Source: an uncultured Verrucomicrobiae bacterium (lineage in GTDB: Bacteria > Verrucomicrobiota > Verrucomicrobiia > Chthoniobacterales > JAFAMB01). Taken from it: a stretch of 64,000 nt of DNA. Below, one piece after another: positions 2,950 to 41,544 of this stretch (its first letter is position 1; each line of letters begins with the position of its first letter). The stretch lies in NCBI GenBank assembly GCA_963762565.1, contig CAVXLD010000011.1, positions 1 through 64,000 of the forward strand, read 5' to 3'. The notes under the pieces were generated by a model. That model saw nothing but the letters and a program-made list of their open reading frames with translations. It searched no databases and was not told where the DNA came from. The translations under genes and the position numbers were made by a program.

Positions 2950-4683
2950 TTGAACCGTCAAAAGACCATACTGTTTGTTTGTACCGGGAATGTATGCAGG
3001 AGTCCGATGGCAGAAGGCCTTTTTGAAAGGATGACCGCGGAACGTGCGGATCTGCGCGTCCTGTCGGCGGGTGTCAGTACCTATCCGGGCCAGCCGCCTA
3101 GCGCGCACGCGGTTGAAGTCCTGGAGGAGCTTGGTGTCGACATCTCTCAACATCGCAGTAAGCCAATCAGTGAGAAGGTGGTCGAAGAAGCGGATTGGAT
3201 CATAGCAATGACCCGCAGTCATTTGGATTCGATTATCTATCTCTTTCCCAGGGCGGCGGAGAAAGTTTATCTACTACGTGAGTTTGAGCCGGGAGCAACC
3301 TCGCTTGATGTTGCCGACCCAATTGGCATGGGCTTGGAAGCCTATCGAGCCGCGCGTGAGATAATCCGGCATAGTTTGCCCGGGCTAATGCAGTTTATCG
3401 ATCAATATCGCCCCGGAGCTTTTTCCACTATGAGTCGAAACCCGCACAACCGTTCGTTAGAAGAAGTCGATCCCGAGATTTTTCAGGCAATCGAAGCGGA
3501 ACGGATCCGCCAGTTTGAAAATATCGAGTTAATCGCTTCGGAGAACTTTACCAGTCGCGCGGTAATGGAAGCCCAAGGATCTGTCCTGACCAACAAATAC
3601 GCGGAGGGATATCCGGGAAGACGTTGGTATGGCGGTTGCGAGAATGTGGATGTGGTGGAGCGGCTCGCTATTGATCGGGCCAGGCAGTTGTTTGGCGCCG
3701 AGCACGTCAACGTCCAAGCCCATAGCGGAAGCCAGGCGAACATGGCGGTCTATTTCAGCGTGCTAAACCCCGGGGACCGAATTTTAACGATGGACCTATC
3801 CCATGGAGGCCATCTTACTCATGGTAACAAGGCGAATTTCTCCGGACGCTTTTATTCGGTTGTACACTATGGCGTAGACCGTGAAACCGAGCGTATCGAT
3901 TACGACCAGCTGGCCCGACAAGCAGAAGAACATAAGCCGAGGATGATCACGGCCGGCGCTTCTGCCTACTCACGGATTATCGATTTCCAGAAGATGCGGC
4001 AAATCGCGAATTCAGTGGGTGCCTATTTGTTCGTGGATATCGCCCATATAGCAGGTCTGGTAGCAGCCGGCGTGCATCCCACTCCCATTGGAATCGCGGA
4101 CTTTGTCACTACCACCACGCATAAGAGTTTACGTGGTCCGCGAGGGGGGATCATCATGTGTAAACCGGAACATGCCAAGGCCATCGACAGCCTGATGTTT
4201 CCCGGAGTTCAAGGGGGACCGCTTATGCACGTGATTGCAGCGAAGGCGGTTTGTTTTCACGAAGCCTTGCAGCCGGGATTCAAAGAATACCAGGTTCAGA
4301 TTACGAACAACGCTAAGGCGTTGGCTGCCAGCCTGCACATGAAGGGTTATCGTTTGGTGTCCGGAGGAACCGACAATCATTTGATGCTGGTTGACTTGCG
4401 GCCCAAAGGATTGAACGGCAGGCAAGCCCAGGAAACCCTCGATGTCGCCGGGATCACCGTTAACAAAAATTCCATCCCCTTTGACACCGAATCTGTGGTG
4501 AAAGGCGGAGGCATCAGGATTGGAACGCCGGCTGTCACCACGCGCGGAATGAAGGAAGAGGAGATGATGGAAATCGCTGACCTCATGGACGAAGCACTCA
4601 GTTCTAACGGTGACGCATCGGTTCTTGAAAAAGTGCGCCAGAAAGTAAAGGGGCTGACCGCGAAGTATCCGCTGCCGGGTTAG
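2950..4683 (+). CDS. glyA: LMW protein Arg/Tyr phosphatase fused to serine hydroxymethyltransferase
   Basis: N-terminal CTGNVCRS P-loop and DVADPIG; from about aa 161 the SHMT motifs [17 protein letters not shown] and [13 protein letters not shown]. One continuous frame. Confidence 0.95.
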
Positions 4684-4684
4684 G

Positions 4685-5124
4685 GTTTGGCGTTCGGCGT
4701 TTGGCGTTCGGCGGTTTGGTGGGGCGAGGCTCCCGAAAGAACTAGGAGATCGAACAACGAGACTAGATTCGCCCTCACTCTATCATTTGAGACGCCGGAT
4801 CGCGCGCCGAGCCGGACGCTAGACGTGCCAACGCCTTACCGCCTCCGAGCTTTCGAGCAAGCCCTGCTTGGCCATCACCCGACGCCCCAGCGAAACCGGT
4901 GTGCATGCCGTGTCGTGGGTCCGGCTCGGCGCGCGGTTCGAGCTTGCAAATGAAAGAGCGGCGATACGTTTAATCTCTTTGATTAGCGATTCAGGTCTTT
5001 CGGGAGCCTCGCCCCACCAAATCAGCCGCCAAACCGCGCAACCGCCAAACGCCGAACCGCCGCAACCACCGCACGCCAACCGCCGAACGCCGAACGCCGA
5101 ACGCCGAACGCCGAACGCCAAACG
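4685..5124. repeat. GGCGTTY / RAACGCC bracket enclosing a REP-like doublet
   Basis: Runs from the glyA stop to the malQ stop. Inside: TGGTGGGGCGAGGCTCCCGAAAGA ... TCTTTCGGGAGCCTCGCCCCACCA, with an inner CGCGCCGAGCCGGAC / GTCCGGCTCGGCGCG pair. Confidence 0.9.
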
Positions 5125-6630
5125 CTACCTCTGATACAGCCTGGCGAGCTGCCGGAGCTGGTCTCCTCTTTGACCCCAGAGCTGATCCAATTGCTCCGAT
5201 GTGAAACGCCACCGCCAATTACCGATCGCTTGACCCGGCGTATTCATGCGGCCTTCGCTACCCAAACCGAGAAAATCTTGTAGTGGTGTGATGAAAATGC
5301 GCGATGTGGAGGCATATCCGGCATGGATCATCTCCCAAGGAACGTTCTTGGCGTCTGTCCTAAGGTATTCGCTGAAGAACCGTTTTACCTGTTCGGGTTG
5401 GGTTCTGAACCAGCCCCAGCTCGTATCATTGTCGTGGGTTCCAGGATAGAGAACGGAGTAAGGAATCGTGCTGTGCGGCAGGTACTCTGTGGCCCCTTCA
5501 AAAGCGAATTGCAGCACTTTCATCCCCGGTAAACCGACGTGCTGCATCAACCGGCGGACCGAATCGGTAATGATACCCAAGTCCTCAGCCACCAGCTTCG
5601 CGTTTGGGAAACGGCGACGTACAACCTCGAACAGCTTAAGGCCAGGCCCGGGCTCCCAAGTGTATTGGCGAGCATTCTTCGCATCAGGCGGAATCCGGCA
5701 ATACTCGTCGAACCCACGGAAATGGTCGATCCGGATCACATCGTAAAGTTCGAACGCTTTCTGCAGCCGTGCACACCACCAGGCATAATCGTCGACCGCG
5801 TGGCGGTCCCACGCGTAAAGTGGATTACCCCAAAGTTGGCCGTCAGCCGAAAAATAATCAGGTGGCACGCCGGCGACTCCGGTCGGACGGAGATCAGTGT
5901 CCATTTGAAATAAGGAGGGATGTCTCCAGACATCCGCGCTATCCATCGCAACGAAAATCGGAATATCTCCAAAGATAGAGATACCGCGCTGATTAGCGTA
6001 CGCCTTTAGAGCCGACCACTGCTGGAAGAATTTGAATTGATAGAAAGCGCAGGCTACACCCGCGCCAGTCTGCAGATCTGTCCGCTTTGTAGCCGTCCGG
6101 TACTTTCGGTAGGACCTTGGCCATTCCAGCCATGAGCGATGACCAAATTGCCCCTTAATCGCCATGAAAAGCGCGTATGAGTCTAGCCAATCGGAATTGA
6201 TTTCCCGAAACTTGTGAAAGGCGTCTTGTGATGACCGGTTCGCTGTTTCCGAAAACGTGGCGAAGGCTTTCTCCAGAATAATCCAACGCAGATCCCATTG
6301 GGCGCCGTAGTCGACGTAATCGGTGGGTAAGGTCCTTAAAGGCTCGAGATCGGCTTCCTGGAGCAGGCCCTCATTCTTAAGATCTTCGAGGTCAATCAGG
6401 TAGGGATTACCCGCGCAAGCCGAGAAACACTGATAAGGTGAGTCTCCGTACCCCGTTGGGCCTAGTGGGCAGACTTGCCAATATTTCATGCCGGTATCGG
6501 CAAGAAAATCAACAAAGCGGCGAGCCCAACGTCCAAGTGTGCCAATCCCGGTATCTCCTGGCAAAGAAGTAGGATGGAGAAGAACCCCGGCGCCGCGGGA
6601 GGTTAGCCAGTTGTAGAGGGGATCGGGCAC
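5125..6630 (-). CDS. malQ: 4-alpha-glucanotransferase (amylomaltase, GH77)
   Basis: Motifs GVLLHPTSLPG, GVPPDYFSADGQLWGNP, RIDHFRGF, AEDLG and GTHDNDT. Confidence 0.96.
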   Translation of the reverse strand: MPDPLYNWLTSRGAGVLLHPTSLPGDTGIGTLGRWARRFVDFLADTGMKYWQVCPLGPTGYGDSPYQCFSACAGNPYLIDLEDLKNEGLLQEADLEPLRTLPTDYVDYGAQWDLRWIILEKAFATFSETANRSSQDAFHKFREINSDWLDSYALFMAIKGQFGHRSWLEWPRSYRKYRTATKRTDLQTGAGVACAFYQFKFFQQWSALKAYANQRGISIFGDIPIFVAMDSADVWRHPSLFQMDTDLRPTGVAGVPPDYFSADGQLWGNPLYAWDRHAVDDYAWWCARLQKAFELYDVIRIDHFRGFDEYCRIPPDAKNARQYTWEPGPGLKLFEVVRRRFPNAKLVAEDLGIITDSVRRLMQHVGLPGMKVLQFAFEGATEYLPHSTIPYSVLYPGTHDNDTSWGWFRTQPEQVKRFFSEYLRTDAKNVPWEMIHAGYASTSRIFITPLQDFLGLGSEGRMNTPGQAIGNWRWRFTSEQLDQLWGQRGDQLRQLARLYQR

Positions 6631-6636
6631 GGGGAC

Positions 6637-7019
6637 GTGAGAGGTGATTAGTGATTAGTGATTAGTGATTGGTCAGGGGCGAGCCCTGGGCAAGCAGAAA
6701 GCTGTGTGGACTGATGGTTGGCGGGACTAGCTGTGCCGGAAAATGTACCGAGCCGTGACCCTGGCGGGCACGGCTCGGCAAGATTCTAAAATTTCCGGTA
6801 AAACTTGCGTGACCTGTGGCGCCTCTTCAGCATCTCCAACCCGCTACGCGGGTGCTTTTCGGACTTGGCGCAGTACTCCAACACTCCCACACTCCATCAC
6901 TCCGCTTGGCCGGATTCGAGGACGAGGACGACGACGAGGACGAGAACGAAGCGCCTTGTGAGCTGTTCGGCTTCGCCGAACCACCAATCACCTCTCACTA
7001 ATCACCAATCACTTCTCAC
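6637..7019. repeat. GTGATTR / YAATCAC bracket with internal repeat cargo
   Basis: Five heptamers on each side. The interior carries a 72-nt block (6830-6901) identical to 47236-47307. Confidence 0.9.
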
Positions 7020-7258
7020 TGCTGCCCAGTCTCTGGGAACGTCATCGTATCCAGCAGGAATTCCTCATACTTCTCCCGATGTTTATCCATCCATTCCTTT
7101 CGAGCTTCTTCCCAGGAGAGTTTTCGGCCCTTTTCTCCTTCGATCCATTTGTACTTCCGGATCTCCTCTTTGATCAGGTAAGTGATCCGATAAAATGGAT
7201 CGGATAACATCATCGGCGGGACCTGTACGTACTGTTCAGTATCGAGGATTTGGCGCAT
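7016..7258 (-). CDS. Small conserved protein (DUF4032-like)
   Basis: 80 aa containing EEIRKYKWIEGEKGRKLSWEEARKEW; 11 nt downstream of malK on the same strand. Confidence 0.7.
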   Translation of the reverse strand: MRQILDTEQYVQVPPMMLSDPFYRITYLIKEEIRKYKWIEGEKGRKLSWEEARKEWMDKHREKYEEFLLDTMTFPETGQQ

Positions 7259-9333: not shown

Positions 9334-9575
9334 GTGAGAGGTGAGAAGTGAAAAGTGATTGGTGATTGGTGGTTGATGACGTGCGTCTGGAGGGGAGCCG
9401 CTTTATAGGTTAGCAGATCTGTCGGTTGCTTGCAGGCGGCTCCCGGGAACGTTCCAACGCGACGCGCCGAGGGTATTTTTTCCCATGCGGATCTGACGCG
9501 CCGGTTTTGAGCCGTTTCGCTGTCGTCTTGCGAACGCCAAACGCCGAACGCCAAACGCCAAACGCCAAACGCAAA
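9334..9575. repeat. Chimeric bracket: GTGAGA/GTGATTG left arm, RAACGCC right arm
   Basis: The two arms belong to different heptamer families. The interior 9386-9449 matches the left arm of the long inverted repeat at 50771. Confidence 0.85.
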
Positions 9576-11126
9576 CTATCCCCTCGCGTACCGTTTCAGA
9601 GTAAATCGCAGGTTGATCCATGACAGCGTTCCAACAATAAAAAACAATAGCGTGGCGATGGCACTGGCTAAACCGTAGTTCGCCCCTGCATCACGGAATG
9701 CCAGGTTATAAGTGTAGGTTACTAATATGTCCGTCTCGCCGGCGATCCCGCCGCCGGGCATTCTAGGTTCGCCTGCAGTCAATAAATAGATAAGCGCGAA
9801 GTTATTGAAGCTAAACGCGAAGCTCGCCACCAGCACTGGGAATAGCGGAGGCAACACCAGTGGTAGCGTTAAATAAAAGAAGTTTAGCACCGGATTACTG
9901 CCCTCGATGGCCGCGGACTCGTAGATGGTTGAAGGAATCGACTGCAACATTCCTGTGCAGATCAACATCATGTAGGGATAGCCCAGCCAGACATTCACTA
10001 ACAGGATCATGGCCCGTGCCGCCCAAGGATCGGTCTCCCAAGCAGGAGCAAACCCCAGAACCGCCTTGAGGAGTTGATTTACGGCTCCGAATTCCTGATT
10101 AAAGAGTCCTCTCAGAATCAGGAGCGATAAGATTCCGGGCACTGCGTACGGAAGAATAAGTAACGTCCGGTAAAGCTTTTTGAATTTCAGTTCTCGCCAT
10201 TCCAAAATCACTGCCAGCAAGATCCCGGCTGTAAACGTTCCCAGCACGGAGCAGATAGAGAAGGCCAGCGTCCAGACAAAGATTCGGAAAAAAGGGCCCT
10301 GGATTCGCGGGTCGGTGATGATTTGAACGTAGTTATCGAGACCAGCAAAAGACCGGAATCCGGGTCCAATCTGTTCTCCAGTTTGATCGAGAAAACGGCC
10401 TCCACGAAAGTCCGGCCGAACAACCGAGCCGTCGATCTGATTGGTCAGAGAGCCGTCCGGATTAGTTTTCCAGACCCGCCGCTGAGTAATGAAATGCTCC
10501 AAGTCGGCCTTTCCCACCAGAATGTCCCCGGGCAACTTGAAAGGGACGTTGCGCAGCGGTTGGTAGAGGCGGTCGCGAGCAATCGTACGCGGATCCAAGA
10601 CTTCCCCAGGAATCTGGTCATTGGGCGGAACTTGGTTCAGCTGGATGGTATCTTCCGAAAAAGCGCCGTCATGACCCGGGATCAGGGTGATGGGTTCCGA
10701 AACGAACCGATCTTCCGGCTTTTTTTCGTTTTTCAATTCGAGAATGAACCGCCCGTCGGCTTGGCGGTGCAGCCAGAAATTGAAAGTGTCCGAACTGGAG
10801 ACAGTGACCTCCGCCTTAAAACGGAGGAGAACGTCGGACAGGTTCAGCAGATGATTGGCGCTATACCGAGTCAGGCTGATGTAAACCACCAGGCAGATTG
10901 GGAAGATGACGAAGAGAGCGAACGCCAGTAGCCCGGGAAAAAGATAGCGATACGTTTCTGCTCTGGGATTGAGATAAATAAAAAATCCAAGGCAAGTAAC
11001 CGCTAACAGCCCGAGCGCGACCAGGTCGCCGCCAGACCGGTAGGCAGCGAGACAGAGGTAGAGCGCGGCTAAAGCCGCTACCGCCACCAGAATATTCCGG
11101 AGGGAAAAAATTGAAGGCAAATTCAC
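9576..11126 (-). CDS. malF: Maltose/maltodextrin ABC permease with large periplasmic loop
   Basis: Motifs YRYLFPG, YRTLLILPYAVP, LFNQEFG, VNVWLGYPYMM and AGETDILV. Confidence 0.92.
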   Translation of the reverse strand: MNLPSIFSLRNILVAVAALAALYLCLAAYRSGGDLVALGLLAVTCLGFFIYLNPRAETYRYLFPGLLAFALFVIFPICLVVYISLTRYSANHLLNLSDVLLRFKAEVTVSSSDTFNFWLHRQADGRFILELKNEKKPEDRFVSEPITLIPGHDGAFSEDTIQLNQVPPNDQIPGEVLDPRTIARDRLYQPLRNVPFKLPGDILVGKADLEHFITQRRVWKTNPDGSLTNQIDGSVVRPDFRGGRFLDQTGEQIGPGFRSFAGLDNYVQIITDPRIQGPFFRIFVWTLAFSICSVLGTFTAGILLAVILEWRELKFKKLYRTLLILPYAVPGILSLLILRGLFNQEFGAVNQLLKAVLGFAPAWETDPWAARAMILLVNVWLGYPYMMLICTGMLQSIPSTIYESAAIEGSNPVLNFFYLTLPLVLPPLFPVLVASFAFSFNNFALIYLLTAGEPRMPGGGIAGETDILVTYTYNLAFRDAGANYGLASAIATLLFFIVGTLSWINLRFTLKRYARG

Positions 11127-14126: not shown

Positions 14127-14345
14127 TAGGACTTATGGGACCTATGGGATGCCGCCGAATGGGCGAAAGGGCGAATGGGCGAAGGGGGCGGATAGGAACC
14201 GGTGGCTCTTACGTCCGCACACCGTCACGCCCACACGCCCTTTCGCCCTTTCGCCGGTGCGCCGGTGCGCCGTTTGGTCCGCCACGCTGGCACGCTTCCC
14301 GACTTCGCAAAGCCTACGTCGCGGCCGGCCTTGAACTCCTCCTAC
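14127..14345. repeat. Nested 9-mer/8-mer bracket plus 30-nt motif
   Basis: ATGGGACCT units, GGCGAAWG / CTTTCGCC octamers, then CCGACTTCGCAAAGCCTACGTCGCGG-CCTTGAACTCCTCCT as at 2883. Confidence 0.75.
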
Positions 14346-14390
14346 TCCTCCCTGATAGGTATCCTATCGCCGACAATGGGGGGCGGTAAT

Positions 14391-15938
14391 ATGACAGATA
14401 CATTGATTGAAAATCCGTTGAGAGAAGGGCTTGTGTCTCGGGCGGCACCAGGCACGTGTGCGATCGTTATCTTTGGTGCGACCGGCGACCTGACGCACCG
14501 GAAGTTGATCCCGGCCTTATACAATTTGGCTGCCGACGGCGATCTGCCGCCAGGCTTAAGCGTTGTCGGCTTTGCTCGCCGGGACAAGAAAGACGAAGAG
14601 TTCCGGCAGGAGCTTTACGAGGCGGCTCGCAAATATTCGCGTCAGCCGGTCGATGATGCACTCTGGAAGAATTTTGCTAGCTCGATCTTTTATCATCGCA
14701 GCGAATTTTCGGACGAAGAAGGTTATCGCCGCCTGGGTGAACGTCTCGCAGAAATTGACCGGGAGCGGGGCACCCGCGGCAACCGGATCTATTATCTGTC
14801 AGCAGGTCCGGACCAGTTTGAGCCGATTCTCACTCATTTGACTGCGACCGGCCTCAATCGAGCTGCCGACGGGGCATGGGCCCGTATCATTGTGGAGAAA
14901 CCGTTCGGTGTGGATCTCGAGACTGCGCAGCGCCTCAATAGCGCAGTGAACCATGGGTTCAAAGAACAAGACACCTTCCGAATTGACCATTACCTGGGAA
15001 AAGAAACTGCTCAGAACATCATGGTTCTGCGATTTGCGAACGCGCTTTTCGAGCACCTTTGGAACCACCGCTACATTGACCACGTCCAGATTACCGCCAG
15101 CGAGAAGCTAGGCGTCGAAAACCGGGCCGGTTATTACGAGGGGGCCGGTGCGTTACGGGATATGGTGCAGAACCATTTACTGCAACTTCTCTGCTTGATC
15201 GCAATGGAGCCGCCGACGGACCTCAGCGCAGATTCAATTCGAGATGAGAAAGTAAAGGTCCTGCGTTCTCTCCGCCGGATCCGAGGGGAAACCGTGTTCC
15301 AGAATGTTGTGCGCGGCCAATACACCGATGGTTCGATCGATGGTGAGTCCGCAGTCGGTTACCGGCAGGAAAAGAACGTAAATCCCGGATCAATGACCGA
15401 GACTTATGCCGGGCTTAAAATCCTGATCGACAATTGGCGCTGGGCCGATGTGCCTTTTTATGTGCGGGTTGGGAAACGACTGCCAAAAGGCGGGACCGAG
15501 ATCGGGATCCATTTTAAGAATGCGCCGGGAGTATTGTTCAACCGTGACCAACCGAGCGGCCGGGACGGAGTCCAGAACGTTCTGGTGATCCGGATCCAGC
15601 CTGACGAAGGTGTTTCGCTCCGCATCCAATCGAAGGTACCGGGAGCGAGTGTGCAGATTCAGCCGGTAAAAATGGATTTCAGGTATGGCACCTCTTTTGG
15701 AAAAGCCAGCCCGGAGGCATACGAGCGCCTTTTACTCGATGCGATGGCAGGGGATGCCACTCTGTTTGCCCGGCGGGACGAGGTCGAAGAAGCCTGGCGA
15801 TTTATCGATGACATCGAGGCCGGCTGGCGGGAGCATGGCAACGAAAAAAACCTGGCCTTTTACTCGGCCGGGAGCTGGGGACCCGCAGAGGCGGATGCGT
15901 TGATTGAGCAGGACGGGCGGGGGTGGCGAAGACTGTGA
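14391..15938 (+). CDS. zwf: Glucose-6-phosphate 1-dehydrogenase
   Basis: Motifs IFGATGDL, EKPFG, RIDHYLGKE, RDMVQNHLLQ and AYERLLLD; likely start MTDTLIENPL. Confidence 0.97.
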   Translation: MTDTLIENPLREGLVSRAAPGTCAIVIFGATGDLTHRKLIPALYNLAADGDLPPGLSVVGFARRDKKDEEFRQELYEAARKYSRQPVDDALWKNFASSIFYHRSEFSDEEGYRRLGERLAEIDRERGTRGNRIYYLSAGPDQFEPILTHLTATGLNRAADGAWARIIVEKPFGVDLETAQRLNSAVNHGFKEQDTFRIDHYLGKETAQNIMVLRFANALFEHLWNHRYIDHVQITASEKLGVENRAGYYEGAGALRDMVQNHLLQLLCLIAMEPPTDLSADSIRDEKVKVLRSLRRIRGETVFQNVVRGQYTDGSIDGESAVGYRQEKNVNPGSMTETYAGLKILIDNWRWADVPFYVRVGKRLPKGGTEIGIHFKNAPGVLFNRDQPSGRDGVQNVLVIRIQPDEGVSLRIQSKVPGASVQIQPVKMDFRYGTSFGKASPEAYERLLLDAMAGDATLFARRDEVEEAWRFIDDIEAGWREHGNEKNLAFYSAGSWGPAEADALIEQDGRGWRRL

Positions 15939-15941
15939 AAG

Positions 15942-16552
15942 GTGATTGGTGATTAGTGATTGGTGATTGGTGGTTTATGAGCGCTGCGAGGTCATTCCGC
16001 GATCTTAGGGTTTATCAATTGGCTAGGTCCGCAGCCAGCGAGGTCCTTGAGGTTAGCAAATGCTTTCCGCGCGAGGAGCGGTATGCGTTGACAGATCAGA
16101 TTAGACGGTCGGCAAAGGCAACCAAAGCCATGATTGCCGAAGCTTGGGCTCGAAGACGATACAAAGCGGTTTTTATCAACAAACTTGATGAGGCACTAGG
16201 CGAACCGAGCGAGACTCAGTCTTGGCTCGATGATGCGCTAGATTCTGGGTACATCGATATTGATCAGTTCAGTAGAATGGATGCCACCTGGCGATCGATC
16301 GGAGGAATGGTCGGTCGCATGATTGATCGTGCAGCCGATTTTTGTAAGTACGCGTCTGATACCGACTATCGTGGAACGGTGATGGAAGGACCAGCCAGTC
16401 TGGATGAAGCGCTGTTTAATGACCTGGATGATGTTGCTACTTAAGAAGGTGAGCGAGCGACTAACCGATAAAAAGATATCTCGTTTGGCCGCGCCACTGC
16501 TCTCGGCCCGGCGCCGTCTTCCACCAATCACCAATCACTAATCACCAATCAC
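15942..16552. mobile_element. Heptamer-bracketed cassette carrying a four-helix-bundle gene
   Basis: Perfect 32-bp inverted repeat (15942-15973 with 16521-16552) built from GTGATTR units. Mobility is inferred, not shown. Confidence 0.7.
15977..16444 (+). CDS. Four helix bundle protein (23S rRNA IVP / TIGR02436 family)
   Basis: Motifs SFRDLRVYQ, FPREERYALTDQIRRSA, IAEAW.RRRY and E..ETQSWL..A..GYI. Confidence 0.92.
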   Translation: MSAARSFRDLRVYQLARSAASEVLEVSKCFPREERYALTDQIRRSAKATKAMIAEAWARRRYKAVFINKLDEALGEPSETQSWLDDALDSGYIDIDQFSRMDATWRSIGGMVGRMIDRAADFCKYASDTDYRGTVMEGPASLDEALFNDLDDVAT

Positions 16553-16557
16553 ATTTT

Positions 16558-17613
16558 ATGTCCGCCCCCACTACCCCCAGAAACATCACCCGCGGAATGC
16601 CCATCGAAATCGGCAAGATCAACCGCAGCCTAACCCAACTGTGGGAACGAGAGGGAGATCAGCTGGTCAAGGCTTCGCTCGTAAATTTTGCGGTCTATAG
16701 CGAGGCTTCTGATGCGCTGACTTATAACACCAATCTCATGGAAGAGATTACGCGGGAACACGCTTGCCGCGCCATCTTGCTTGCTGCAAACCCGCTTGCT
16801 CCAAAACGCAGGATTCAAGCTTGGATTAGCGCTCATTGTCATCTGACCGGAGGCGGCGCCCGAGAAGTTTGTAGTGAACAAATTGCGTTTCTTTTGGAAG
16901 GCACCGGACCGGAAACAATGCGCAGTGTTTTATTCAGTCACCTGGATTCCGACCTGCCTCTGTATCTATGGTGGCAAGGTCCGTTCACTGGCAGTCTTGA
17001 CGTCCAGCTTTGGAGATGGGTTGACCGATTCTTCTTCGATAGTTGTTCCTGGCGTAACCCCAGCCGCCAGATGCAGATTCTTCGCGAATCGGTTGCCAGC
17101 GCTCGTTCTCGCATTGTGTTGTGCGATCTGAACTGGCGACGTTTGATTTATCTGCGGTTAGCGATGGCCCAGATGTTTGACCAACCTTGGGCCGCGGAGA
17201 AGCTCCGCACGATTAAAGCGCTAACGATCGTGTTCCATCCTGAGTATCAAACCACTGCCGTATTACTCGTGGCCTGGTTTGCCAGCCAGCTCCGCTGGGA
17301 ATTAATCGAACACTCCGATACCGAGTTCAAATTCGCCAAGCGCGGGGCCCAGGAGCCGGTCCGAGTTATCTTACAAGCGGTGCCGGGACAATGGGTCAGC
17401 GAGGTCCGAATCGATTTCGGCGAAGGATCATTCGATCTTAACTGGTCCGGTAAATTCTTAGAATGCAGCTGGTCCGATTATCAGGGCGTAAAGCAGCTTC
17501 TCCCTGCCGGCGGCACGACCATTGCCGACCTGGTAAGCGAAGAACTGGCACGAGGCGGAGAACATGTGACCTATCTTCGCGCCTTGGGCCTGGCGGAACG
17601 ACTCTGGGACTGA
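16558..17613 (+). CDS. opcA: G6PDH assembly protein OpcA
   Basis: Motifs EHACRAIL, AWISAHCH, VCSEQI, DLPLYLWWQG and DLNWRRL; follows zwf. Confidence 0.9.
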   Translation: MSAPTTPRNITRGMPIEIGKINRSLTQLWEREGDQLVKASLVNFAVYSEASDALTYNTNLMEEITREHACRAILLAANPLAPKRRIQAWISAHCHLTGGGAREVCSEQIAFLLEGTGPETMRSVLFSHLDSDLPLYLWWQGPFTGSLDVQLWRWVDRFFFDSCSWRNPSRQMQILRESVASARSRIVLCDLNWRRLIYLRLAMAQMFDQPWAAEKLRTIKALTIVFHPEYQTTAVLLVAWFASQLRWELIEHSDTEFKFAKRGAQEPVRVILQAVPGQWVSEVRIDFGEGSFDLNWSGKFLECSWSDYQGVKQLLPAGGTTIADLVSEELARGGEHVTYLRALGLAERLWD

Positions 17614-17639
17614 TTTCCAGGAGCTAGGAGGGGCGTGTT

Positions 17640-17948
17640 GGCGAAACGGCGAATCGGCGCACCGGCGAATGGGCGCGTCGTGGCGGTAGGGCAAAAATCT
17701 CGGCGCGTCGCGGACGGACCATTCAGACCACGTGTATGCGCGCCGGATTTGAGCCGAGCCGTGGGGTTGCTACCTCGCCGGCTTCGATGGTCCACAGAAC
17801 GGTTACTCGCTGGATGTTGCAGCGTGCACGCATGGCTCAAATCCGGCGCGTAGACATCGATGGAAACGGCACGTCGTGGGCGCGCCGAGATTTTCGCCCT
17901 ACCGGCACCACGCGCCCATTCGCCGGTGCGCCGATTCGCCGTTTCGCC
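17640..17948. repeat. GGCGMAHN octamer bracket, perfect 39-bp inverted repeat
   Basis: 17640-17678 is the exact reverse complement of 17910-17948; the IR continues imperfectly inward. Confidence 0.9.
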
Positions 17949-18020
17949 CACACGGCGCCCCTTGCGTTCGCCCGACAACACGCTATCTACTGCCCAATCG
18001 CCAACCGCCAACCCCCGACG

Positions 18021-21603: not shown

Positions 21604-22485
21604 ATGGAAATCTTATCTGCTCAGATTAAGGCTGAACGCTCGTTCAAGTACGCGTTGCTGGCTCCGGCGGTGATCTGGGTCATCGCCTTAACTTTCTTCC
21701 CGATCTTAGCGGCGGTTCATTATAGCTTCGCCAACTATGTGCTTGGGGAGGGGATTACCAGCTATGTCGGTTTTGATAATTATGCCCGCCTGCTAACGGA
21801 CTGGAATTTCTGGTACGCGATCTTTATCACGGTCCTGTTTGTCGGGATTACCGTGCCAATCGAGGTCTGCGCCGGCTTTTTGCTAGCCTGGATCATCACC
21901 ATCGGGCTGCCCGGGAAAAGCTTCTTTCGGCCGATCCTGACCGCGCCGTTGTTCACGATGGAAGTAGCCATCGGATATCTCGGGGTCACTCTATTTACCG
22001 ATCAGGGTGGGTTAATCAGCGGTTGGCTGGCTGCGCTTGGAATTCACATTCCTTGGCTATCGACTGCCACCGGAGGACTAGCTGCGGCGATGATTTTGGA
22101 CGTTTGGATCTGGACACCATTCGTCTTTTTGATGTCTTTGGCTACACTTTCAGCCATTCCCACCGACCTGTACGACGCGGCTCTACTGGAAGCGAAAAGT
22201 CATTGGGAAGTCTTTTGGCATGTAGCTGTGCCCCTGGCCTGGCCGGTACTCACTATCGCCATTCTCTCCCGCGTGATTGAAGGGATGAAGGCTTTCGGTC
22301 TGCCCTACGCACTCACCAGCGGCGGCCCCGGCACGAGCACGCAGCTCTTCAGTATCATGGCCGATCTAACGACGATCCAATTCACCGATTTCGGTCGTGG
22401 ATCCGCCATGGGTATCCTGTACCTCATCTTAGTTTCTGTGGTGATAACCTATTTCTTCAAACAGATGCGCAAACGAATTGAATAA
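21604..22485 (+). CDS. Carbohydrate ABC permease
   Basis: Motifs VGFDNY, DVWIWTPF, LYDAA and LTSGGPG. Confidence 0.9.
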   Translation: MEILSAQIKAERSFKYALLAPAVIWVIALTFFPILAAVHYSFANYVLGEGITSYVGFDNYARLLTDWNFWYAIFITVLFVGITVPIEVCAGFLLAWIITIGLPGKSFFRPILTAPLFTMEVAIGYLGVTLFTDQGGLISGWLAALGIHIPWLSTATGGLAAAMILDVWIWTPFVFLMSLATLSAIPTDLYDAALLEAKSHWEVFWHVAVPLAWPVLTIAILSRVIEGMKAFGLPYALTSGGPGTSTQLFSIMADLTTIQFTDFGRGSAMGILYLILVSVVITYFFKQMRKRIE

Positions 22486-22557
22486 GGAGTTAGGAGCTAG
22501 AATCTAGACTCTAGTAGGAGCGATCTCCTAGCTCCTAGATTCTAGCTCCTAGCTCCT
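22485..22557. repeat. Empty AGGAGCT / AGCTCCT heptamer bracket
   Basis: The arms are separated only by CGAT; the AGAATCT/AGATTCT variant is mirrored. Confidence 0.9.
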
Positions 22558-22565
22558 GAATCGAC

Positions 22566-23420
22566 ATGGAAAACCTGTTGTGGACTAACTCCAAGAAAGG
22601 CTCGAAGGCCGTCATAATGGTGATTGCCTGTGTGGCGACCATCTGGGTAGTGATTCCTTTTTTCTGGGCGATCGTTAACTCTTTCAAGACCCCAGCCGAA
22701 ATATTCAAGCCGGGCGCTTTGATTCCATTTCTGCAATTCGCCCCAACGTTAGACACCTGGACTGAGGTTTTGGGCGACCCCCAGGCGTTGAACTGTCTAT
22801 TCAGCAGCGCTCTGGTCGGGGTGGGCACCACTTTACTGGTGCTGCTGATAGGAACACCGGCTGCGTATAGTCTGGCCCGGTTTGAGTTCAAGATGAAGAG
22901 CCGGGATATCACGCTCTGGTTTTTGTCGCAGCGCGTATTGCCGCCAGTAGTCGTGCTGACGCCGTTCTATATTCTTCTAGCCCAGGTGGGTCTGATTGAC
23001 ACTTGGATCGGTTTGATCATCCTTTATTCCACTTTTAACCTGGCTTTTTGCGTAGTCATTATGCGGGATATTTTCCGCGACGTTAGCAAAGAGGTCGAAG
23101 AAGCAGCTAGAATCGAGGGCGCCTCTCTTTGGCAAATCTTTTGGATGATCGCTCTACCGCTTTCCCTGGATGGTCTGATCGTAACCGCGTTTATCGTTTT
23201 CGCGTTTTGTTGGAATGAAGCGTTATTTGCGTCAGCGGTTACTTCGCAGCACGCGGCCACCATGCCTGCCTTTATCCTAGCTTCACGGAGCACTCGCGGA
23301 GTGGACTTTAATTATGCTGCGGTGAATACCATCCTAGCGATCACTCCGCCGGTCATCTTGTCGTTCTTTGTTCAACGCTACCTGGCGCGGGGCTTGTCGT
23401 TTGGAGCGGTGAAAGGATAA
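22566..23420 (+). CDS. Carbohydrate ABC permease
   Basis: Motifs PAAYSLARF, EVEEAARIEGA and FCWNE; ends GLSFGAVKG. Confidence 0.9.
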   Translation: MENLLWTNSKKGSKAVIMVIACVATIWVVIPFFWAIVNSFKTPAEIFKPGALIPFLQFAPTLDTWTEVLGDPQALNCLFSSALVGVGTTLLVLLIGTPAAYSLARFEFKMKSRDITLWFLSQRVLPPVVVLTPFYILLAQVGLIDTWIGLIILYSTFNLAFCVVIMRDIFRDVSKEVEEAARIEGASLWQIFWMIALPLSLDGLIVTAFIVFAFCWNEALFASAVTSQHAATMPAFILASRSTRGVDFNYAAVNTILAITPPVILSFFVQRYLARGLSFGAVKG

Positions 23421-23566
23421 GGGAGTAGGAGCTAGGAGCTAGAAGAAATCATTTTGATATGACCAAGAGGCGACGCAACGAACTTGTCAAAAAGCATTCA
23501 AAAGCCGGCGAACAGAGGTGACGCTAAGTCAACGTCCTAGCTCCTAGATTCTAGCTCCTAGCTCCT
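23421..23566. repeat. AGGAGCT / AGCTCCT heptamer bracket
   Basis: The left arm directly follows TAA; about 90 nt of interior. Confidence 0.85.
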
Positions 23567-23594
23567 TTTCTAACCCCTCTCACGTAAGCAAAGA

Positions 23595-24689
23595 ATGGCA
23601 ATCGTAGAACTAACCAACGTCCTAAAGAAATACGGCGAAGTCTTGGCCGTTGAGAGCTTCAACCTCACCACGAATGAGGGTGAATTCGTGGTGCTCGTCG
23701 GGCCTTCCGGTTGCGGAAAAACCACGACCATGCGTATGATCGCCGGCCTGGAAACCGTGACTGGCGGCGAAATCAAAATCGCGGGGAAAAATGTCGTTGG
23801 GATGATACCGCGGGAACGGGATGTCGCCATGGTGTTCCAAAACTACGCTCTATTCCCGCATATGAACGTTTTTGGGAATATGTCTTTCGGGCTAAGACTC
23901 CGGAAACTTCCTCGAGAGAAGATCGAGAGCCGGGTGCGCGAGGCGGCGAATATTCTCGGTATCGAACATTTGTTGAGCCGCAAACCGAAAGAGCTTTCTG
24001 GGGGCGAGAGGCAACGGGTTGCGCTAGGGCGGGCGATCGTCAGAGAGCCTCAGGTATTCCTGATGGATGAACCCTTATCGAACATCGACGCGAAGCTACG
24101 GGTAGAGATGCGTGCCGAAATCATTAAGCTGCAACGTCGCCTCGGAGTTACCACCTTCTACGTCACCCATGACCAGGTTGAAGCCCTCAGCATGGGTGAC
24201 CGCATTGTGGTGATGTCTAAAGGCAAGGTACAACAAGTCGGAACGCCCAGGGAGCTTTACCAAAATCCACAAAACCTTTTTGTGGCAGGCTTTATTGGGA
24301 GCCCGTCGATGAATTTTATTCGGGTGCAGGTCAGCGACAAAGGAACGCTCTCAGCCGGAGAAGATTTTAAGGTTGGTTTACCGGGTCAACTGGCAGACGC
24401 GGTCCGTGCGAAGGGGCTGCGCGAAGTAATTTTGGGTGTGCGCCCAGAACATCTCCGGCTAGTAGGAGACGGAGCGGCCGAAAACAGAATCCCTGGTGTG
24501 GTCGACATCGTTGAACCACAAGGGTCGACCACCATTCTGCAAGTGAGCGTCGGTGCTGACACCAAGATCATAGCCCAGGTGGCCGAACAATGGGGCCGTC
24601 AGCCCGGTGAACGTCTACAGCTTTCGATCCCGCCTGACGCGATTCATTTGTTTGATCCGGCGACGGATGAGCGAGTCGGTGAAAAGTGA
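23595..24689 (+). CDS. Sugar ABC ATP-binding protein (MalK/UgpC family)
   Basis: Motifs [23 protein letters not shown] and YVTHDQVEA. Confidence 0.93.
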   Translation: MAIVELTNVLKKYGEVLAVESFNLTTNEGEFVVLVGPSGCGKTTTMRMIAGLETVTGGEIKIAGKNVVGMIPRERDVAMVFQNYALFPHMNVFGNMSFGLRLRKLPREKIESRVREAANILGIEHLLSRKPKELSGGERQRVALGRAIVREPQVFLMDEPLSNIDAKLRVEMRAEIIKLQRRLGVTTFYVTHDQVEALSMGDRIVVMSKGKVQQVGTPRELYQNPQNLFVAGFIGSPSMNFIRVQVSDKGTLSAGEDFKVGLPGQLADAVRAKGLREVILGVRPEHLRLVGDGAAENRIPGVVDIVEPQGSTTILQVSVGADTKIIAQVAEQWGRQPGERLQLSIPPDAIHLFDPATDERVGEK

Positions 24690-25022
24690 TTAGTGATTGG
24701 TGAGTGGTGAGTGGTGAGTCGTGATTGGTAGGGCTCAAGCCTGGTAGGGCGAGGCTCCCGCAAGACCGAGCGATTGACCAAGGCGCAGGTGCGTAAACCT
24801 CACCGGTCAACGAGCCATGTATATAAAACGCGCCGAGCCGTGGTCTATCCTGGGCCACGGCTCGGCGCGTCTGTTGGATCTGCTCGATGATAGGTCCAGT
24901 GGAGGCGATCTCCCTTGTTTGAGCGGGCTCTTTCGGGAGCGGCGCCCTACCAGGCCTCAGCCCCACCAATCACCGATCACCAATCACCAATCACCAATCA
25001 CGCCTCACTTTTCCCCTCTCAC
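24679..25022. repeat. GTGATTR / YAATCAC bracket enclosing a REP-like doublet
   Basis: Seven to eight heptamers per arm; both convergent genes end (GEK*) inside the arms. Confidence 0.9.
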
Positions 25023-27945: not shown

Positions 27946-28989
27946 ATGAAATCGATCCTTATCGTACAACTTAAACGGTTAGGTGATTTGATCCTCACCA
28001 CGCCGGCGCTGGCAGCCTTACGGGAAAAATATCCAGGATCGCAAGTTACAATTTTGATCGATCATTACAGCCGGGATCTGGCGCCCGCTCTTCAACATAT
28101 CGATGAGGTCTTAGTCTATGAACGGAAGCGTTCGTTTCCTGTCTGGTTCCAACTGCTCCGGCGAGAGTTCGATCTTTGTATTGACTGTACCGGGACCGAT
28201 CGGTCCGCGCTGATCTGTTTTCTATCGAAGGCATCTCATCGCGTGATTTTCCGCTCAGTTGCCCGGCACCGGTTCCGTTCTTGGGTCTACACAGAGCTGG
28301 TGGACGTTTCCGTTCGCAACTGCCACACGATCGATCTCTATTTGAGCTTGGTCCGGTCGGGAAACCACCTGTCGCGCAGTAGCGAAGCGGAGGCGGATGC
28401 ACCTCAACATGGCCTAGAACTCTCCTTGCCGGAAGCAACCGTAAGGTCGGCTCAAAAAGTGAAGTCGAAGCTGGGTGTCTCCGGGCAGTTTTTTGTGGTG
28501 CATCCCGGAACGGCCAGGCGGGAGAAGTACTGGGTACCAGAGCGCTGGGCCGAAGTTCTCCGCTACCTGCAAGATCGGTTACAGCTTCCCGTTGTCATTA
28601 CCGGCGGCATAGATTCCGAGGAATCGAAACATATCGACACAATAAAAAGCTTTCTCAGTCCTGGATTCCCGGTATCGAATGTAGCCGGACGGATCGACTT
28701 CCTGCTCACCGCAGCCTTGATTCGTGAAGCCGCTTTTTTTATTGGGGTGGACACCGCGGCCGCCCACGTTGCCTCTGCCTTTGCCCGTCCACAGGTCGTT
28801 CTCTTCGGGCCAACCAACCCCTATCACTGGCATCCTACCCATTCGGGGAGCCGGGTAGTTAGAGCCGGATTTGGCGAAAATTACGAACCAAGTAATCCCA
28901 GAGAAAAAGGCGGACCGATGACTGATCTATCGACCAGCACGGTGATCAATGCTATTGAAAGTGTCTTGAAGACAGGAGCTAGGAGCTAG
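27946..28989 (+). CDS. Glycosyltransferase family 9 (LPS heptosyltransferase-like)
   Basis: Motifs RLGDLILTTP, HPGTARREKYW and GVDTAAAHVASAF..PQVVLFGPT. Confidence 0.92.
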   Translation: MKSILIVQLKRLGDLILTTPALAALREKYPGSQVTILIDHYSRDLAPALQHIDEVLVYERKRSFPVWFQLLRREFDLCIDCTGTDRSALICFLSKASHRVIFRSVARHRFRSWVYTELVDVSVRNCHTIDLYLSLVRSGNHLSRSSEAEADAPQHGLELSLPEATVRSAQKVKSKLGVSGQFFVVHPGTARREKYWVPERWAEVLRYLQDRLQLPVVITGGIDSEESKHIDTIKSFLSPGFPVSNVAGRIDFLLTAALIREAAFFIGVDTAAAHVASAFARPQVVLFGPTNPYHWHPTHSGSRVVRAGFGENYEPSNPREKGGPMTDLSTSTVINAIESVLKTGARS

Positions 28990-29166
28990 AATCTAGGAGC
29001 TAGTAGGGGCGCCGTTATCTCGATAGCGGGAACAAGAAATTGAAATGAACTTTTTTAGAGCGATTGATGGACCAGTTGATTGAAGATGCTGAAGGATCTA
29101 ACTCGCCCGAGACCAAACAGTGATCCTCCTAGCTCCTAGCTCCTAGATTCTAGCTCCTAGCTCCTG
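28973..29166. repeat. AGGAGCT / AGCTCCT heptamer bracket
   Basis: Perfect 31-bp IR (28973-29003 with 29136-29166). It encodes the upstream GARS* end and stops 5 nt before the msbA ATG. Confidence 0.92.
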
Positions 29167-29171
29167 CCTTA

Positions 29172-31001
29172 ATGAGTAAACCGAAATTTTCGCTTCGCGA
29201 GACCTTCCGAACTGCCATCGGTCCGTACCGCGACCTATATCCCTTTCTAAAGCCTTACAGAGTCCAGTTTATCCTGGCGCTGGTTTTTGGAGCATTGTTT
29301 GGAGCGGCTACCGGACTGTTCCCTTTGGTGATGAATCACGTGAATTCCTACGTGTTTCCCCACGGGCACAACTGGAAGGATCTTTCGCAAAGTAATGCGG
29401 GCAGCGGAGCCGATGTCAACCTCGCCTTACTCTATTGCTCAGCAATTCCTTTCATTTTTATTCTCCGCAGCGGCTTCGATTTCTTGAATAGCTATCTGAT
29501 GGCTTGGGTCAGCCTGCGAGTGTTGACCGATCTCCGCTGCAAGCTCTACCAGCATATTCTTGCCCAATCACTTGAGTTCTTTAATCGCGAACGAGCAGGT
29601 AACCTGATGTCGCGGGTGATTAACGATACTCGCCAGGCGCAGACCGCTCTCACCAGTATTAGTAGCGATCTCATTAAACAGCCAATCACTATTGTTACTG
29701 CAATGGGTACGCTGCTCTATCTCGATTGGAGATTTACCATCGGCAGCCTGGTGTTATTTCCAGCCTTTTTAGTTCCGATTCTCTTGTTTGGTAAACGAGT
29801 CAAAAAACAGGGCAAACTTGAAGAGCAAAAAGTCGGTTTCATGATGACGGCGCTCCAGGAAGCATTCTCCGGAATTCGGGTTATCAAGGCGTTCGCTCGT
29901 GAAGATCGGGAATCGGCTCATTTTAGCCAGTTGAGCGAAGAGGGTTTTCGCAACGCTGCCAGAGTAAGAAAAGCCATAGAAGTGGTGAGTCCGTTGGTAG
30001 AGGCAGTCGGCGCCGTCGGCGTTGGGTTAGCGCTTTTCTATGTTTGGTATTTTCATTTAAGCGCTCCCAGGTTGATCGCTTTGCTGATGGCCATGTTTTT
30101 CCTGTATGACCCAGCAAAAAAACTGAGCCGTATTCATCTGGTCATGCAGCAATGCTTTGTGGCGACTACCAACGTCTTTGAGATCATGCGGATGAAGCCG
30201 GCTATTGAGGATCGGCCTGGCTCCGTTGCTATCTCCGAAAGCAAAGGTGATATCCGGTTCGAAAACGTTATGTTTCGTTATCGCCCCGAATTGCCGACGG
30301 CGCTGAATAGTCTCAACCTTCATATTGAGCCCGGGAAATATTTCGCTTTAGTCGGCGCCAGTGGAGCCGGAAAGAGCACGATCCTTTCGCTCCTGCTTCG
30401 CTTCTATGAGCCTGAAGCCGGCGCGGTACTACTGGACGGCACTGATACCCGTACCATCACCCAACAGTCGTTGCGCAACCAGATCGGGATTGTGACCCAG
30501 GATACGTTCCTCTTTCACGATAGCATCTTGAATAATATTCGTTATGGCCGTCTCAATGCTACCGAGGAGGAAGTGATTACCGCGGCCAAGAGCGCCTTTG
30601 CTCACAATTTCATTATGCAACAACCCAATGGCTACAACACGGTTATTGGGGATAAGGGTTGTCTTCTGTCCGGGGGTCAGCAGCAGCGGGTTTCAATTGC
30701 TCGCGCCTTGCTAAAGAACGCTCCCGTTCTTCTGCTAGACGAGGCAATGTCCGCGCTGGATTCTGAGGCCGAACGCGAAATCCAAGAAGCCTTGGAGCGG
30801 CTAAGCCAGGGCCGGACGGTGATTGCCATCGCGCATCGCCTTTCCACGGTGTTGAAAGCGGATCAAATCGTCGTCATGGATCGCGGCGAGATTCGTGAAA
30901 TGGGAACCCATCGGCAATTGTTGGAAAGATCAACTTTGTATCGCCGCCTTTACGACCTGCAATTTAATGTCCAGGCCGAAGAGCTGGTCGATGTGGCGTA
31001 G
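29172..31001 (+). CDS. msbA: Lipid A flippase-type ABC exporter
   Basis: TMD plus NBD with GASGAGKST and LSGGQQQR; LPS gene context. Confidence 0.8.
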   Translation: MSKPKFSLRETFRTAIGPYRDLYPFLKPYRVQFILALVFGALFGAATGLFPLVMNHVNSYVFPHGHNWKDLSQSNAGSGADVNLALLYCSAIPFIFILRSGFDFLNSYLMAWVSLRVLTDLRCKLYQHILAQSLEFFNRERAGNLMSRVINDTRQAQTALTSISSDLIKQPITIVTAMGTLLYLDWRFTIGSLVLFPAFLVPILLFGKRVKKQGKLEEQKVGFMMTALQEAFSGIRVIKAFAREDRESAHFSQLSEEGFRNAARVRKAIEVVSPLVEAVGAVGVGLALFYVWYFHLSAPRLIALLMAMFFLYDPAKKLSRIHLVMQQCFVATTNVFEIMRMKPAIEDRPGSVAISESKGDIRFENVMFRYRPELPTALNSLNLHIEPGKYFALVGASGAGKSTILSLLLRFYEPEAGAVLLDGTDTRTITQQSLRNQIGIVTQDTFLFHDSILNNIRYGRLNATEEEVITAAKSAFAHNFIMQQPNGYNTVIGDKGCLLSGGQQQRVSIARALLKNAPVLLLDEAMSALDSEAEREIQEALERLSQGRTVIAIAHRLSTVLKADQIVVMDRGEIREMGTHRQLLERSTLYRRLYDLQFNVQAEELVDVA

Positions 31002-37360: not shown

Positions 37361-37487
37361 GTGATTAGTGATTGGTGATTGGTGATTAGTGGAAGATCCC
37401 GCATGGCGGAATGTCGATACGAAACTCGAGCTCGCTAGCTAGTCACACCCGTCTTCCACCAATCACCAATCACCAATCACTTCTCAC
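37361..37487. repeat. GTGATTR / YAATCAC bracket
   Basis: The right arm ends 2 nt before the ATG at 37490 and shares CCGTCTTCCACCAATCAC with the four-helix-bundle cassette. Confidence 0.9.
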
Positions 37488-38965: not shown

Positions 38966-39265
38966 TTTGGTGGGGCGAGGCTCCTGAATTCCTTGGTAGG
39001 GCGAGGCTCCCGATTGTACTGACACGGTTCGCAGCGTCGCACCGCTTATCCGATCGCCGGTCGCGCTATTTCGAGCGACCGCCGAGCCGTCGCCCAGCGC
39101 GTGCCATGTTCCTCGGTCAAACATGCTGCCACGTCGAGGAAGCGGCTCGGCGATCTCTTCGGCGTTATACACGACAAGGCTATTCAAGCCGCCGTTCTCT
39201 GCGAACTCTGTCAGGCCATTCGGGAGCCTCGCCCTACCAATGCACTGGAGCCTCGCCCTACCAAA
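38966..39265. repeat. REP-like element with doubled ends
   Basis: Two TGGTRGGGCGAGGCTCC units on the left and two GGAGCCTCGCCCTACCAA units on the right; fills the gap exactly from stop to stop. Confidence 0.9.
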
Positions 39266-41448: not shown

Positions 41449-41544
41449 CGGTTTGTGGTTAGCGGTTTGTAGTTTCCTGTTGCCGGTTTGCGGTCTTACC
41501 CACCAGTCACCAATCACTAATCACCTCTCACTTTTCACTCTCAC
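41449..41544. repeat. Chimeric heptamer bracket
   Basis: The left arm is made of GGTTTGY-like units; the right arm of YAATCAC/TCTCAC units. Confidence 0.7.

Follow-up and report, generated by a model that had tools for sequence, protein, structure and literature searches.

A heptamer-bracketed gene splits zwf and opcA

The window analysed here is the full 64,000-nt stretch (54% G+C) at positions 1 to 64,000 of contig CAVXLD010000011.1, from an uncultured bacterium of the Chthoniobacterales (Verrucomicrobiota). In it, zwf and opcA are separated by a cassette consisting of a small gene of the IVP family and two inverted arrays of a 7-nt unit. A sequence-only reading of this DNA had proposed that the gene encodes a four-helix-bundle protein, that its arms form a perfect stem and that the whole behaves in an mRNA like the intervening sequences (IVSs) of rRNA genes. 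The features of the junction are:

14202 to 15938, plus strand: zwf, glucose-6-phosphate dehydrogenase (G6PD), coordinates of the longest open reading frame (ORF); TIGR00871 E 4.7e-198, also PF00479 and PF02781
15942 to 15973, plus strand: G-rich 5′ arm, GTGATTG GTGATTA GTGATTG GTGATTG GTGG; Tandem Repeats Finder (TRF) period 7, 4.6 copies
15977 to 16444, plus strand: IVP gene, 155-aa four-helix-bundle protein; PF05635 over residues 8-112, TIGR02436 over residues 12-118
16445 to 16520, plus strand: non-coding stretch from the IVP stop to the 3′ arm, the cassette's most diverged part among orthologous loci
16521 to 16552, plus strand: C-rich 3′ arm, CCAC CAATCAC CAATCAC TAATCAC CAATCAC; TRF period 7, 4.4 copies
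16558 to 17613, plus strand: opcA, G6PD assembly protein; PF10128 and PF20171 both above cutoff

A direct check confirmed that the two arms are exact reverse complements (32/32 nt) and that they fit the junction tightly, with 3 nt between the zwf TGA (15936-15938) and the 5′ arm and 5 nt between the 3′ arm and the opcA ATG (16558). Inside the arms, the IVP ATG (15977) lies 3 nt past the 5′ arm and the TAA occupies 16442-16444. A further unit, GTGAAAG (15935-15941), precedes the 5′ arm and overlaps the zwf stop codon, and in a repeat search the arm pair was extendable to 36 nt at 97% (15938-15973 / 16521-16556), with 547 nt in between. Because both arms are low-complexity arrays of one unit, their perfect match is less striking than that of a random 32-mer; given the window's 76 GTGATTN units, two in-register GTGATTN arrays would agree at all four variable unit ends with p ∼0.016. 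The motif GTGATTGGTGATT, allowing up to 2 mismatches, had 39 matches in the window compared with 1.15 expected and a maximum of 4 in 100 shuffles. An Rfam search of 15500-17000 at E up to 1 matched no family and no rRNA, and a scan for consensus promoters and terminators found no such site within the element. The true start of zwf is probably the ATG at 14376 or 14391, with the family match beginning only at residue 85. Against the TIGR00534 equivalog model, opcA scored 60.7 bits, under the cutoff of 256.

The enclosed protein belongs to the IVP family

Searches with hidden Markov models (HMMs) bore out the proposed family: the 155-aa ORF matched PF05635 (E 4.7e-25, 88.3 bits, cutoff 33.8) and TIGR02436 (E 8.7e-23, 80.6 bits, cutoff 24). 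The protein also matched the PDB sequences 2rld (2.3e-6) and 2gsc (5.2e-5), each an entry with five chains, and solved relatives of this four-helix-bundle family are pentamers (PMC10053308). No nuclease, recombinase or transposase domain was found in profile searches. The relatedness to Avd, the accessory protein of diversity-generating retroelements, that the sequence-only reading had stated held as a remote similarity, but identity with Avd was rejected: the protein reached 27.6 bits with NF033474 (cutoff 80) and 17.7 with PF22296 (cutoff 40).

Database relatives number in the thousands, and among the matches listed the best 120 are 65-97% identical. We fetched 26 relatives, mostly chosen as longer than 155 aa, and 16 of the 26 have termini that spell heptamer arrays, as over-called N-termini or read-through C-termini (e.g. 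VIGDWW, ...PPPITNH). An acidic C-terminal tail of ∼37 residues past the domain (residues 119-155; window 16089-16444) is conserved. It is typical of the Chthoniobacterales clade of 146-160-aa proteins and missing in a clade of 124-132-aa proteins that have GArGATn heptamers.

Inverted heptamer arms frame IVP genes in many phyla and on plasmids

Gene and inverted heptamer arms together form a conserved unit, present in many phyla and on cyanobacterial plasmids. To describe its surroundings we used the best 80 of 145 confirmed loci, with 88-42% identity and from ∼10 phyla as labelled, all on contigs of metagenome-assembled genomes and without the source genome itself. L-numbers are the labels of fetched loci, L081-L084 being cyanobacterial plasmid copies. 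An inverted-repeat score, the best ungapped pair from 200 nt upstream to 300 nt downstream of the gene, was at least 14 in 38/80 loci compared with 13/958 control ORFs from the same DNA, and 35/80 loci compared with 7/958 controls combined this score with period-7 character. Several of the 13 positive controls were neighbours sharing an IVP arm, or a second IVP paralogue. With softer scoring, 55/80 loci reached 12. TRF period-7 arrays adjoined the gene in 65/80 loci and occurred elsewhere in those loci at 0.68-2.9 per 10 kb (range 0.68-0.85 for the two main heptamer classes).

The arms have a fixed polarity, with more G than C in the 5′ array (58/58) and more C than G in the 3′ array (41/41). 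Median copy numbers were 4.3 units (5′ array) and 4.1 units (3′ array), and the median distance from array to start codon was 6.5 nt. The units themselves vary among the relatives and include GTGATYR, GTGAGAG, GArGATn, GTAARTG, GATGACR, CAGAAGG, GTAGRWG, GGCAGGA and CGGAGRN. Homologues were present in 31 plasmid records, mostly of Nostocales, and absent from phage records; all four plasmid copies examined are framed by inverted heptamer arrays of GCAGGGG or GGAGAKA type:

L081:1434-1949, L082:1411-1911, L083:1443-1950 and L084:1265-2297: plasmid copies from Tolypothrix, Nostoc, Leptolyngbya and Oscillatoria

The flanks of four loci contain seven further paralogue matches, four of which are clearly bracketed:

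L065:13589-13877
L075:6673-7032
L078:25-402
L079:3882-4286

In L075, L078 and L079 the bracketed extra copy has a different heptamer from the locus's first copy. A tandem pair in L075 (2139-2558, 2548-2982) is partially bracketed, and L079:5052-5528, a weak match, is unbracketed. The region L065:13500-14100 holds a frameshifted or internally duplicated IVP copy that still lies between long GATGACR and complementary arrays. The unit GATGACR looks similar to a rotated form of GACAGAT, the repeat reported in the Coxiella IVS (PMC4990558).

Heptamer type follows protein clade

Heptamer class was mapped on a quickly built maximum-likelihood tree of 81 proteins (130 columns, with many forks unresolved). 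It required 18 changes compared with 45.4 in shuffles, and none of 200 shuffles was as low. The GTGAnnn class comprised 33 loci from Verrucomicrobiota and one from Lentisphaerota. The GArGATn class spanned eight named phyla: Verrucomicrobiota (13 loci, including Chthoniobacterales), Planctomycetota, Binatota, Chloroflexota, Acidobacteriota, Rhodothermota, Thermodesulfobacteriota and one bin labelled Actinomycetota, with one more locus unassigned to phylum; phylum here is the label of the bin, and single labels may be wrong. Heptamer type therefore follows protein clade, not host phylum, as the sequence-only reading had suggested it might. Such tracking is expected from physical linkage alone and gives no proof that the protein recognises the repeats.

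The cassette has an evolutionary history apart from its flanks

The zwf–opcA site is shared by the window, L001 and L002 only. Among these three, IVP dN/dS was 0.06-0.09, similar to that of opcA (0.07-0.09); the protein is under purifying selection. Between L001 and L002, synonymous divergence (dS) was 1.87 for IVP compared with 0.34 for zwf and 0.41 for opcA, and in a three-way alignment identity was 0.90-1.00 in zwf, 0.83-0.98 in most of opcA and 0.48-0.87 in the cassette, the lowest value falling in the non-coding 16445-16520. The drop in identity occurs at the arms (window coordinates 15904-16611). Identity between the window and L001 is not lower within the cassette than in the flanks, and on the protein tree the L001 IVP groups with the window, whereas the L001 flanks group with L002. 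From this discordance, either the whole block was exchanged or replaced, or the cassette has a several-fold higher mutation rate than the flanks. The arms persist despite near-saturated synonymous sites in IVP. The arm-bounded cassette thus has an evolutionary history apart from its flanks.

IVP cassettes mostly lie at operon junctions

Based on crude ORF calls, the upstream neighbour is co-directional with the IVP gene in 59/72 loci and both neighbours are in 42/72. The gene is not stably syntenic at zwf–opcA. The junction between moxR and DUF58 carries it in 21 loci, plus L005 at a contig end, and further sites recur:

between rplS and rnhB: 2 loci
between ABC ATPase and permease: 2 loci
downstream of Pup ligase: 3 loci
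at an SDR/NMT1 pair: 7 loci
between tRNA synthetase and GATase: 3 loci

A search for an empty zwf–opcA site in relatives gave no clean example. L004 is the one relative in which zwf and opcA are adjacent with no IVP gene between them, and its spacer there, 420 nt long, contains just a weak inverted repeat of 20 nt; the IVP gene of L004 lies 2.7 kb further on, between GTGAGAG arms that match at 32/32 positions.

Cassettes of different clades occupy the moxR-DUF58-BatA operon (L033, L039, L043, L044 and L051 vs L006-L020), at moxR–DUF58 in some loci and past DUF58 in others. The hosts of some of them belong to other phyla and have MoxR proteins only 42-48% identical. This occupancy suggests either a preferred site or movement of the operon as a whole.

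Taken as a whole, we consider it very probable that the cassette is a conserved, mostly intra-operon unit with a heptamer particular to each protein clade, a protein under purifying selection and a history separate from its flanks.

A proposed model of RNA-level cleavage and its alternatives

What the arms do is less certain. Our preferred reading, on which our confidence is evenly balanced, is that the cassette is inserted in the operon and co-transcribed with it, and that the arms pair in RNA and are cut by RNase III. Positions 15938-16556 would then be a self-contained cassette inserted in an otherwise short zwf–opcA intercistronic junction, with neither promoter nor terminator of its own and transcribed along with zwf and opcA. 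Co-transcription is likely because the element shows no internal promoter- or terminator-like site and has the same orientation as its flanks. In the RNA, the arms are predicted to pair without mismatch over 32 bp or more. This duplex would loop out the IVP cistron, mask the Shine-Dalgarno-like GGUGG with which the 5′ arm ends on its inner side and place the zwf stop beside the opcA start. RNase III would cut this duplex, as it does with 23S rRNA intervening sequences, and cutting might let operons tolerate the insertion, as rRNA does. More speculatively, the ring-forming protein could act on its cognate heptamer array. In the minimum-energy RNA fold of 15925-16570, the two arms pair as a terminal stem around the entire element (-255.3 kcal/mol, z -6.5, 0/20 shuffles as good).

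The precedent for this reading is the 23S rRNA IVS of Coxiella. As given in PMC4990558, that element has a 28-bp terminal stem with three tandem GACAGAT heptamers directly before the S23p ATG, RNase III cleaves it in vitro at a position mapped to the first repeat, heptamer copy number varies by strain, and the ORF is decaying and probably untranslated. The IVSs of Coxiella, Leptospira and others covered there share with the cassette the protein family, an ORF within a terminal-repeat stem loop and tandem heptamers just before the ATG, and they are transcribed within their host RNA (PMC4990558). The differences are that the host of the cassette is the zwf–opcA mRNA operon and not rRNA, that the window's IVP is under purifying selection whereas the Coxiella ORF is described as decaying, and that RNase III cleavage was demonstrated in Coxiella and would be expected here by analogy. 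Given the Coxiella precedent, the role we consider most likely for the arms is to have the operon transcript processed by RNase III; that the enzyme processes the zwf–opcA mRNA at these arms is a claim we hold at slightly less than even confidence. The cassette is probably like the intervening sequences of ribosomal RNA genes. Of the proposal that it acts as an intervening sequence in an mRNA, the anatomical part agrees with the Coxiella element, and the base changes of the arms give no support to pairing in the sense RNA.

Several observations weigh against RNA pairing and cleavage. Mismatches between the arms of 56 elements divided into 63 that are G·U-compatible in the sense RNA, 60 in the antisense only and 103 others (binomial p 0.86). 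Had a sense-RNA helix been under strong selection, mismatches should lean to G·U, so this symmetry lends no support to selection at the RNA level. Most arms are imperfect, a 32/32 match occurring in the window and L004 alone. An element's two arms complemented each other modestly better than they did same-class arms from elsewhere (means 15.5 vs 12.0 and 18.0 vs 15.9; the window's own-arm value of 15 is an artefact, its 3′ arm having been shortened in that comparison), and the own arm was the best partner in 6/34 and 5/29 cases. The motif rather than the pairing may be what is conserved. Two hybrid spacers in the window (9334-9379 with 9533-9576, and 41449-41494 with 41501-41525) combine G-rich and C-rich arrays of non-complementary types, which a pure stem model leaves unexplained; they may be deletions between neighbouring brackets, or a sign that arrays work without pairing. 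No TRF array was found at the gene in 15/80 loci, the inverted-repeat score was below 12 in 25/80, and an upstream array alone was present in L009, L013, L021, L030, L035, L040, L045, L048 and L052. None of seven relative loci with distant neighbours that were checked for rRNA with Rfam was inside an rRNA gene. The sample, moreover, consists of one protein's nearest relatives and is no cross-section of all PF05635.

The lack of G·U bias, the modest own-arm fit, the non-complementary pairs and the missing arms together favour the main alternative, recognition of the heptamer itself on DNA or RNA, possibly by the pentameric protein; the data are compatible with either model. In its DNA form, the arms would work as inverted, transposon-end-like terminal arrays of binding sites and RNA pairing would be incidental. 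An IVP pentamer or a host factor would read the heptamer and promote insertion, replacement or copying of the cassette, including its gene-less derivatives. We judge this somewhat improbable. Points in its favour are these: both arms retain the motif although their degenerate unit positions change independently of each other, paralogues in one genome each have their own heptamer, the median of 4.3 and 4.1 units per arm sits beside the five chains per entry of solved relatives, the discordant block of L001 and L002 is cassette-sized and ends at the arms, a single protein clade spans many phyla as well as conjugative or mobilizable plasmids, and gene-less brackets in the window share the end architecture of the cassette arm. 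Set against these points, the protein has no domain for cutting or recombining DNA, no target-site duplication was seen by eye at the junctions of the window, L001 and L002, and sites are stable over many species, as at moxR–DUF58. Linkage by itself explains why clade and heptamer go together, and the score floor of TRF hides low copy numbers, so that a mode of 4 is partly a detection effect.

The 5′ units could instead be repeated modules of Shine-Dalgarno sequence plus spacer that tune IVP translation, with the 3′ array an anti-Shine-Dalgarno-like decoy for them or a setting for translation of the downstream gene. Shine-Dalgarno-like cores do occur in 5′ units (GGTGAT, GAGGA, GGAGG, AGGAG, a likeness judged without statistics), the arrays end close to start codons (median 6.5 nt), the window's GGTGG stops 3 nt short of the ATG, and in many GArGATn loci the ATG ends the last unit (GAGGATG) with GAGGA 7 nt before (L022, L025, L026, L029, L051). 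Some other unit types are unlike Shine-Dalgarno sequences, for example AAATTTT/AAATTGT at L075:6673-7032 and GATGACA in L065 and L069, and the matching architecture in 23S rRNA stands where translation is doubtful (PMC4990558); we hold such a translational role to be quite unlikely. Chance placement of an unrelated small gene inside one of the REP-like heptamer hairpins generic to the intergenic spacers of this lineage would fit the 29 other arrays of the window, the similar density in L001 and L002 and an ordinary permease gene framed by AGGAGCT arms (22484-22514 / 23537-23567). Bracketing extends, however, to genomes with few arrays, occurs at 65/80 loci and on cyanobacterial plasmids and is found at merely 13/958 control ORFs, which makes coincidence very improbable. 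Least credible of all is that the cassette is what remains of a diversity-generating retroelement and the protein its Avd factor. The likeness consists of a shared four-helix-bundle fold class, pentameric relatives (PMC10053308) and weak similarity to the Avd models (NF033474 E 2.7e-6, PF22296 E 0.005), with both scores far under the curated cutoffs; no reverse transcriptase domain was present in the 57 window ORFs scanned and no pair of template and variable repeats was seen near the cassette.

Relation to other repeats and wider meaning

Cyanobacterial STRR repeats form an intergenic heptamer repeat family. The cassette arrays resemble STRR repeats and the TAACTGA repeats of Beggiatoaceae in being tandem 7-nt intergenic units near start codons, for which a post-transcriptional role is suspected; they differ in that both of those families are described as direct repeats without an enclosed gene, whereas the cassette arrays are inverted G-rich and C-rich pairs that frame a specific gene family. 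The GCAGGGG-type arrays at plasmid IVP genes hint at a link to STRR repeats. For TAACTGA, one inverted set among 170 is reported (PMC4679880).

As with repetitive extragenic palindromes (REPs), the mosaic elements that they build (BIMEs) and miniature inverted-repeat transposable elements (MITEs), short inverted-repeat elements are spread over the spacers of one genome. Here, in contrast, the arms are tandem arrays and not unique sequence, and neither a transposase nor a REP-associated tyrosine transposase (RAYT) was seen among the scanned ORFs. As for a MITE, terminal inverted repeats are present, with no direct repeat at the outer edges by eye (window, L001) and no transposase among the window ORFs.

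Ralph and McClelland reportedly gave the first description of an IVS ORF in 1993. To our knowledge, no function has been assigned to the IVP/S23p family in the roughly thirty years since it was discovered in rRNA intervening sequences, and we know of no explanation for intergenic heptamer repeat families either. In the full-text literature covered, with subscription journals outside it, we found no account of bracketed IVP genes outside rRNA, of clade-specific heptamers or of fixed polarity. rRNA intervening sequences with an IVP ORF are already known, and the package of gene plus heptamer stem in an operon mRNA appears new, a prior description being possible.

Seeing the gene and its cognate inverted arrays as a discrete unit makes both puzzles testable, through RNase III cutting and repeat binding. 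For annotation, the cassette accounts for split junctions in the tightly coupled pairs zwf-opcA and moxR-DUF58. A bolder conjecture, which we think unlikely, is that PF05635 proteins are rings, each of which binds its own heptamer array in a sequence-specific way. Gene and cognate inverted arrays would then make up a single widespread, autonomous class of 'hairpin cassettes' that insert in transcribed DNA (operon junctions, rRNA helices), are removed at the RNA level and seed the gene-less brackets found in abundance in some genomes. If this were true, 23S IVSs, the heptamer brackets of this Chthoniobacterales lineage and perhaps cyanobacterial STRR repeats would share one origin.

Other heptamer arrays in the window

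Beyond the two arms of the cassette, the window contains 29 period-7 arrays in intergenic spacers (4.6 per 10 kb). In L001 and L002, the window's closest relatives, the density is 3.5 and 5.4 period-7 arrays per 10 kb, and most other relatives have about five times fewer. Window arrays comprise at least four unit types (GTGATTG, GTGAGAA, AGGAGCT and GTTCGGC), always with the G-rich array first and the C-rich second; the two are usually complementary and differ in type in the two hybrid spacers. Gene-less inverted heptamer brackets lie at:

2589-2845
4681-5127
6627-7022
22480-22562
23422-23567
24678-25016
28964-29175
37361-37487
44075-44217

The idea that the cassette is the gene-bearing form of this bracket element is supported by the ends and not by the interiors of the brackets. 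Other GTGATTG arms in the window have outer GTGARAG, then GTGATTR units and an inner GGTGG, like the cassette arm. The stretch 9354-9379 is identical at 25/26 positions to the region of the cassette's ATG, and CCGTCTTCCACCAATCACC..., the 8 nt before the 3′ arm plus the arm, recurs at a gene-less bracket (37449-37480, 31/32 identical). No decayed IVP gene was found at E up to 0.01 when an HMM of the 81 proteins was run against six-frame fragments of the window's gene-less brackets and the L004 zwf–opcA spacer.

Among the 57 window ORFs scanned, there was a single PF05635 gene and no reverse transcriptase, transposase or RAYT was seen. The AGGAGCT-type arms noted above lie in successive spacers and frame an ABC permease gene (22566-23420), so brackets can surround non-IVP genes where each spacer has its own hairpin. 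A second palindromic family, with core GGTAGGGCGAGGCTCCCG and its complement, occurs at 4715-4743 / 4993-5021, 24741-24765 / 24929-24955 and 38993-39034 / 39199-39240, twice nested within heptamer brackets and once standing alone. The longest inverted repeat of the window lies just 3′ of opcA and spans 101 nt at 85% (17623-17723 / 17865-17965); it is built of 8-nt units of GGCGAATC type.

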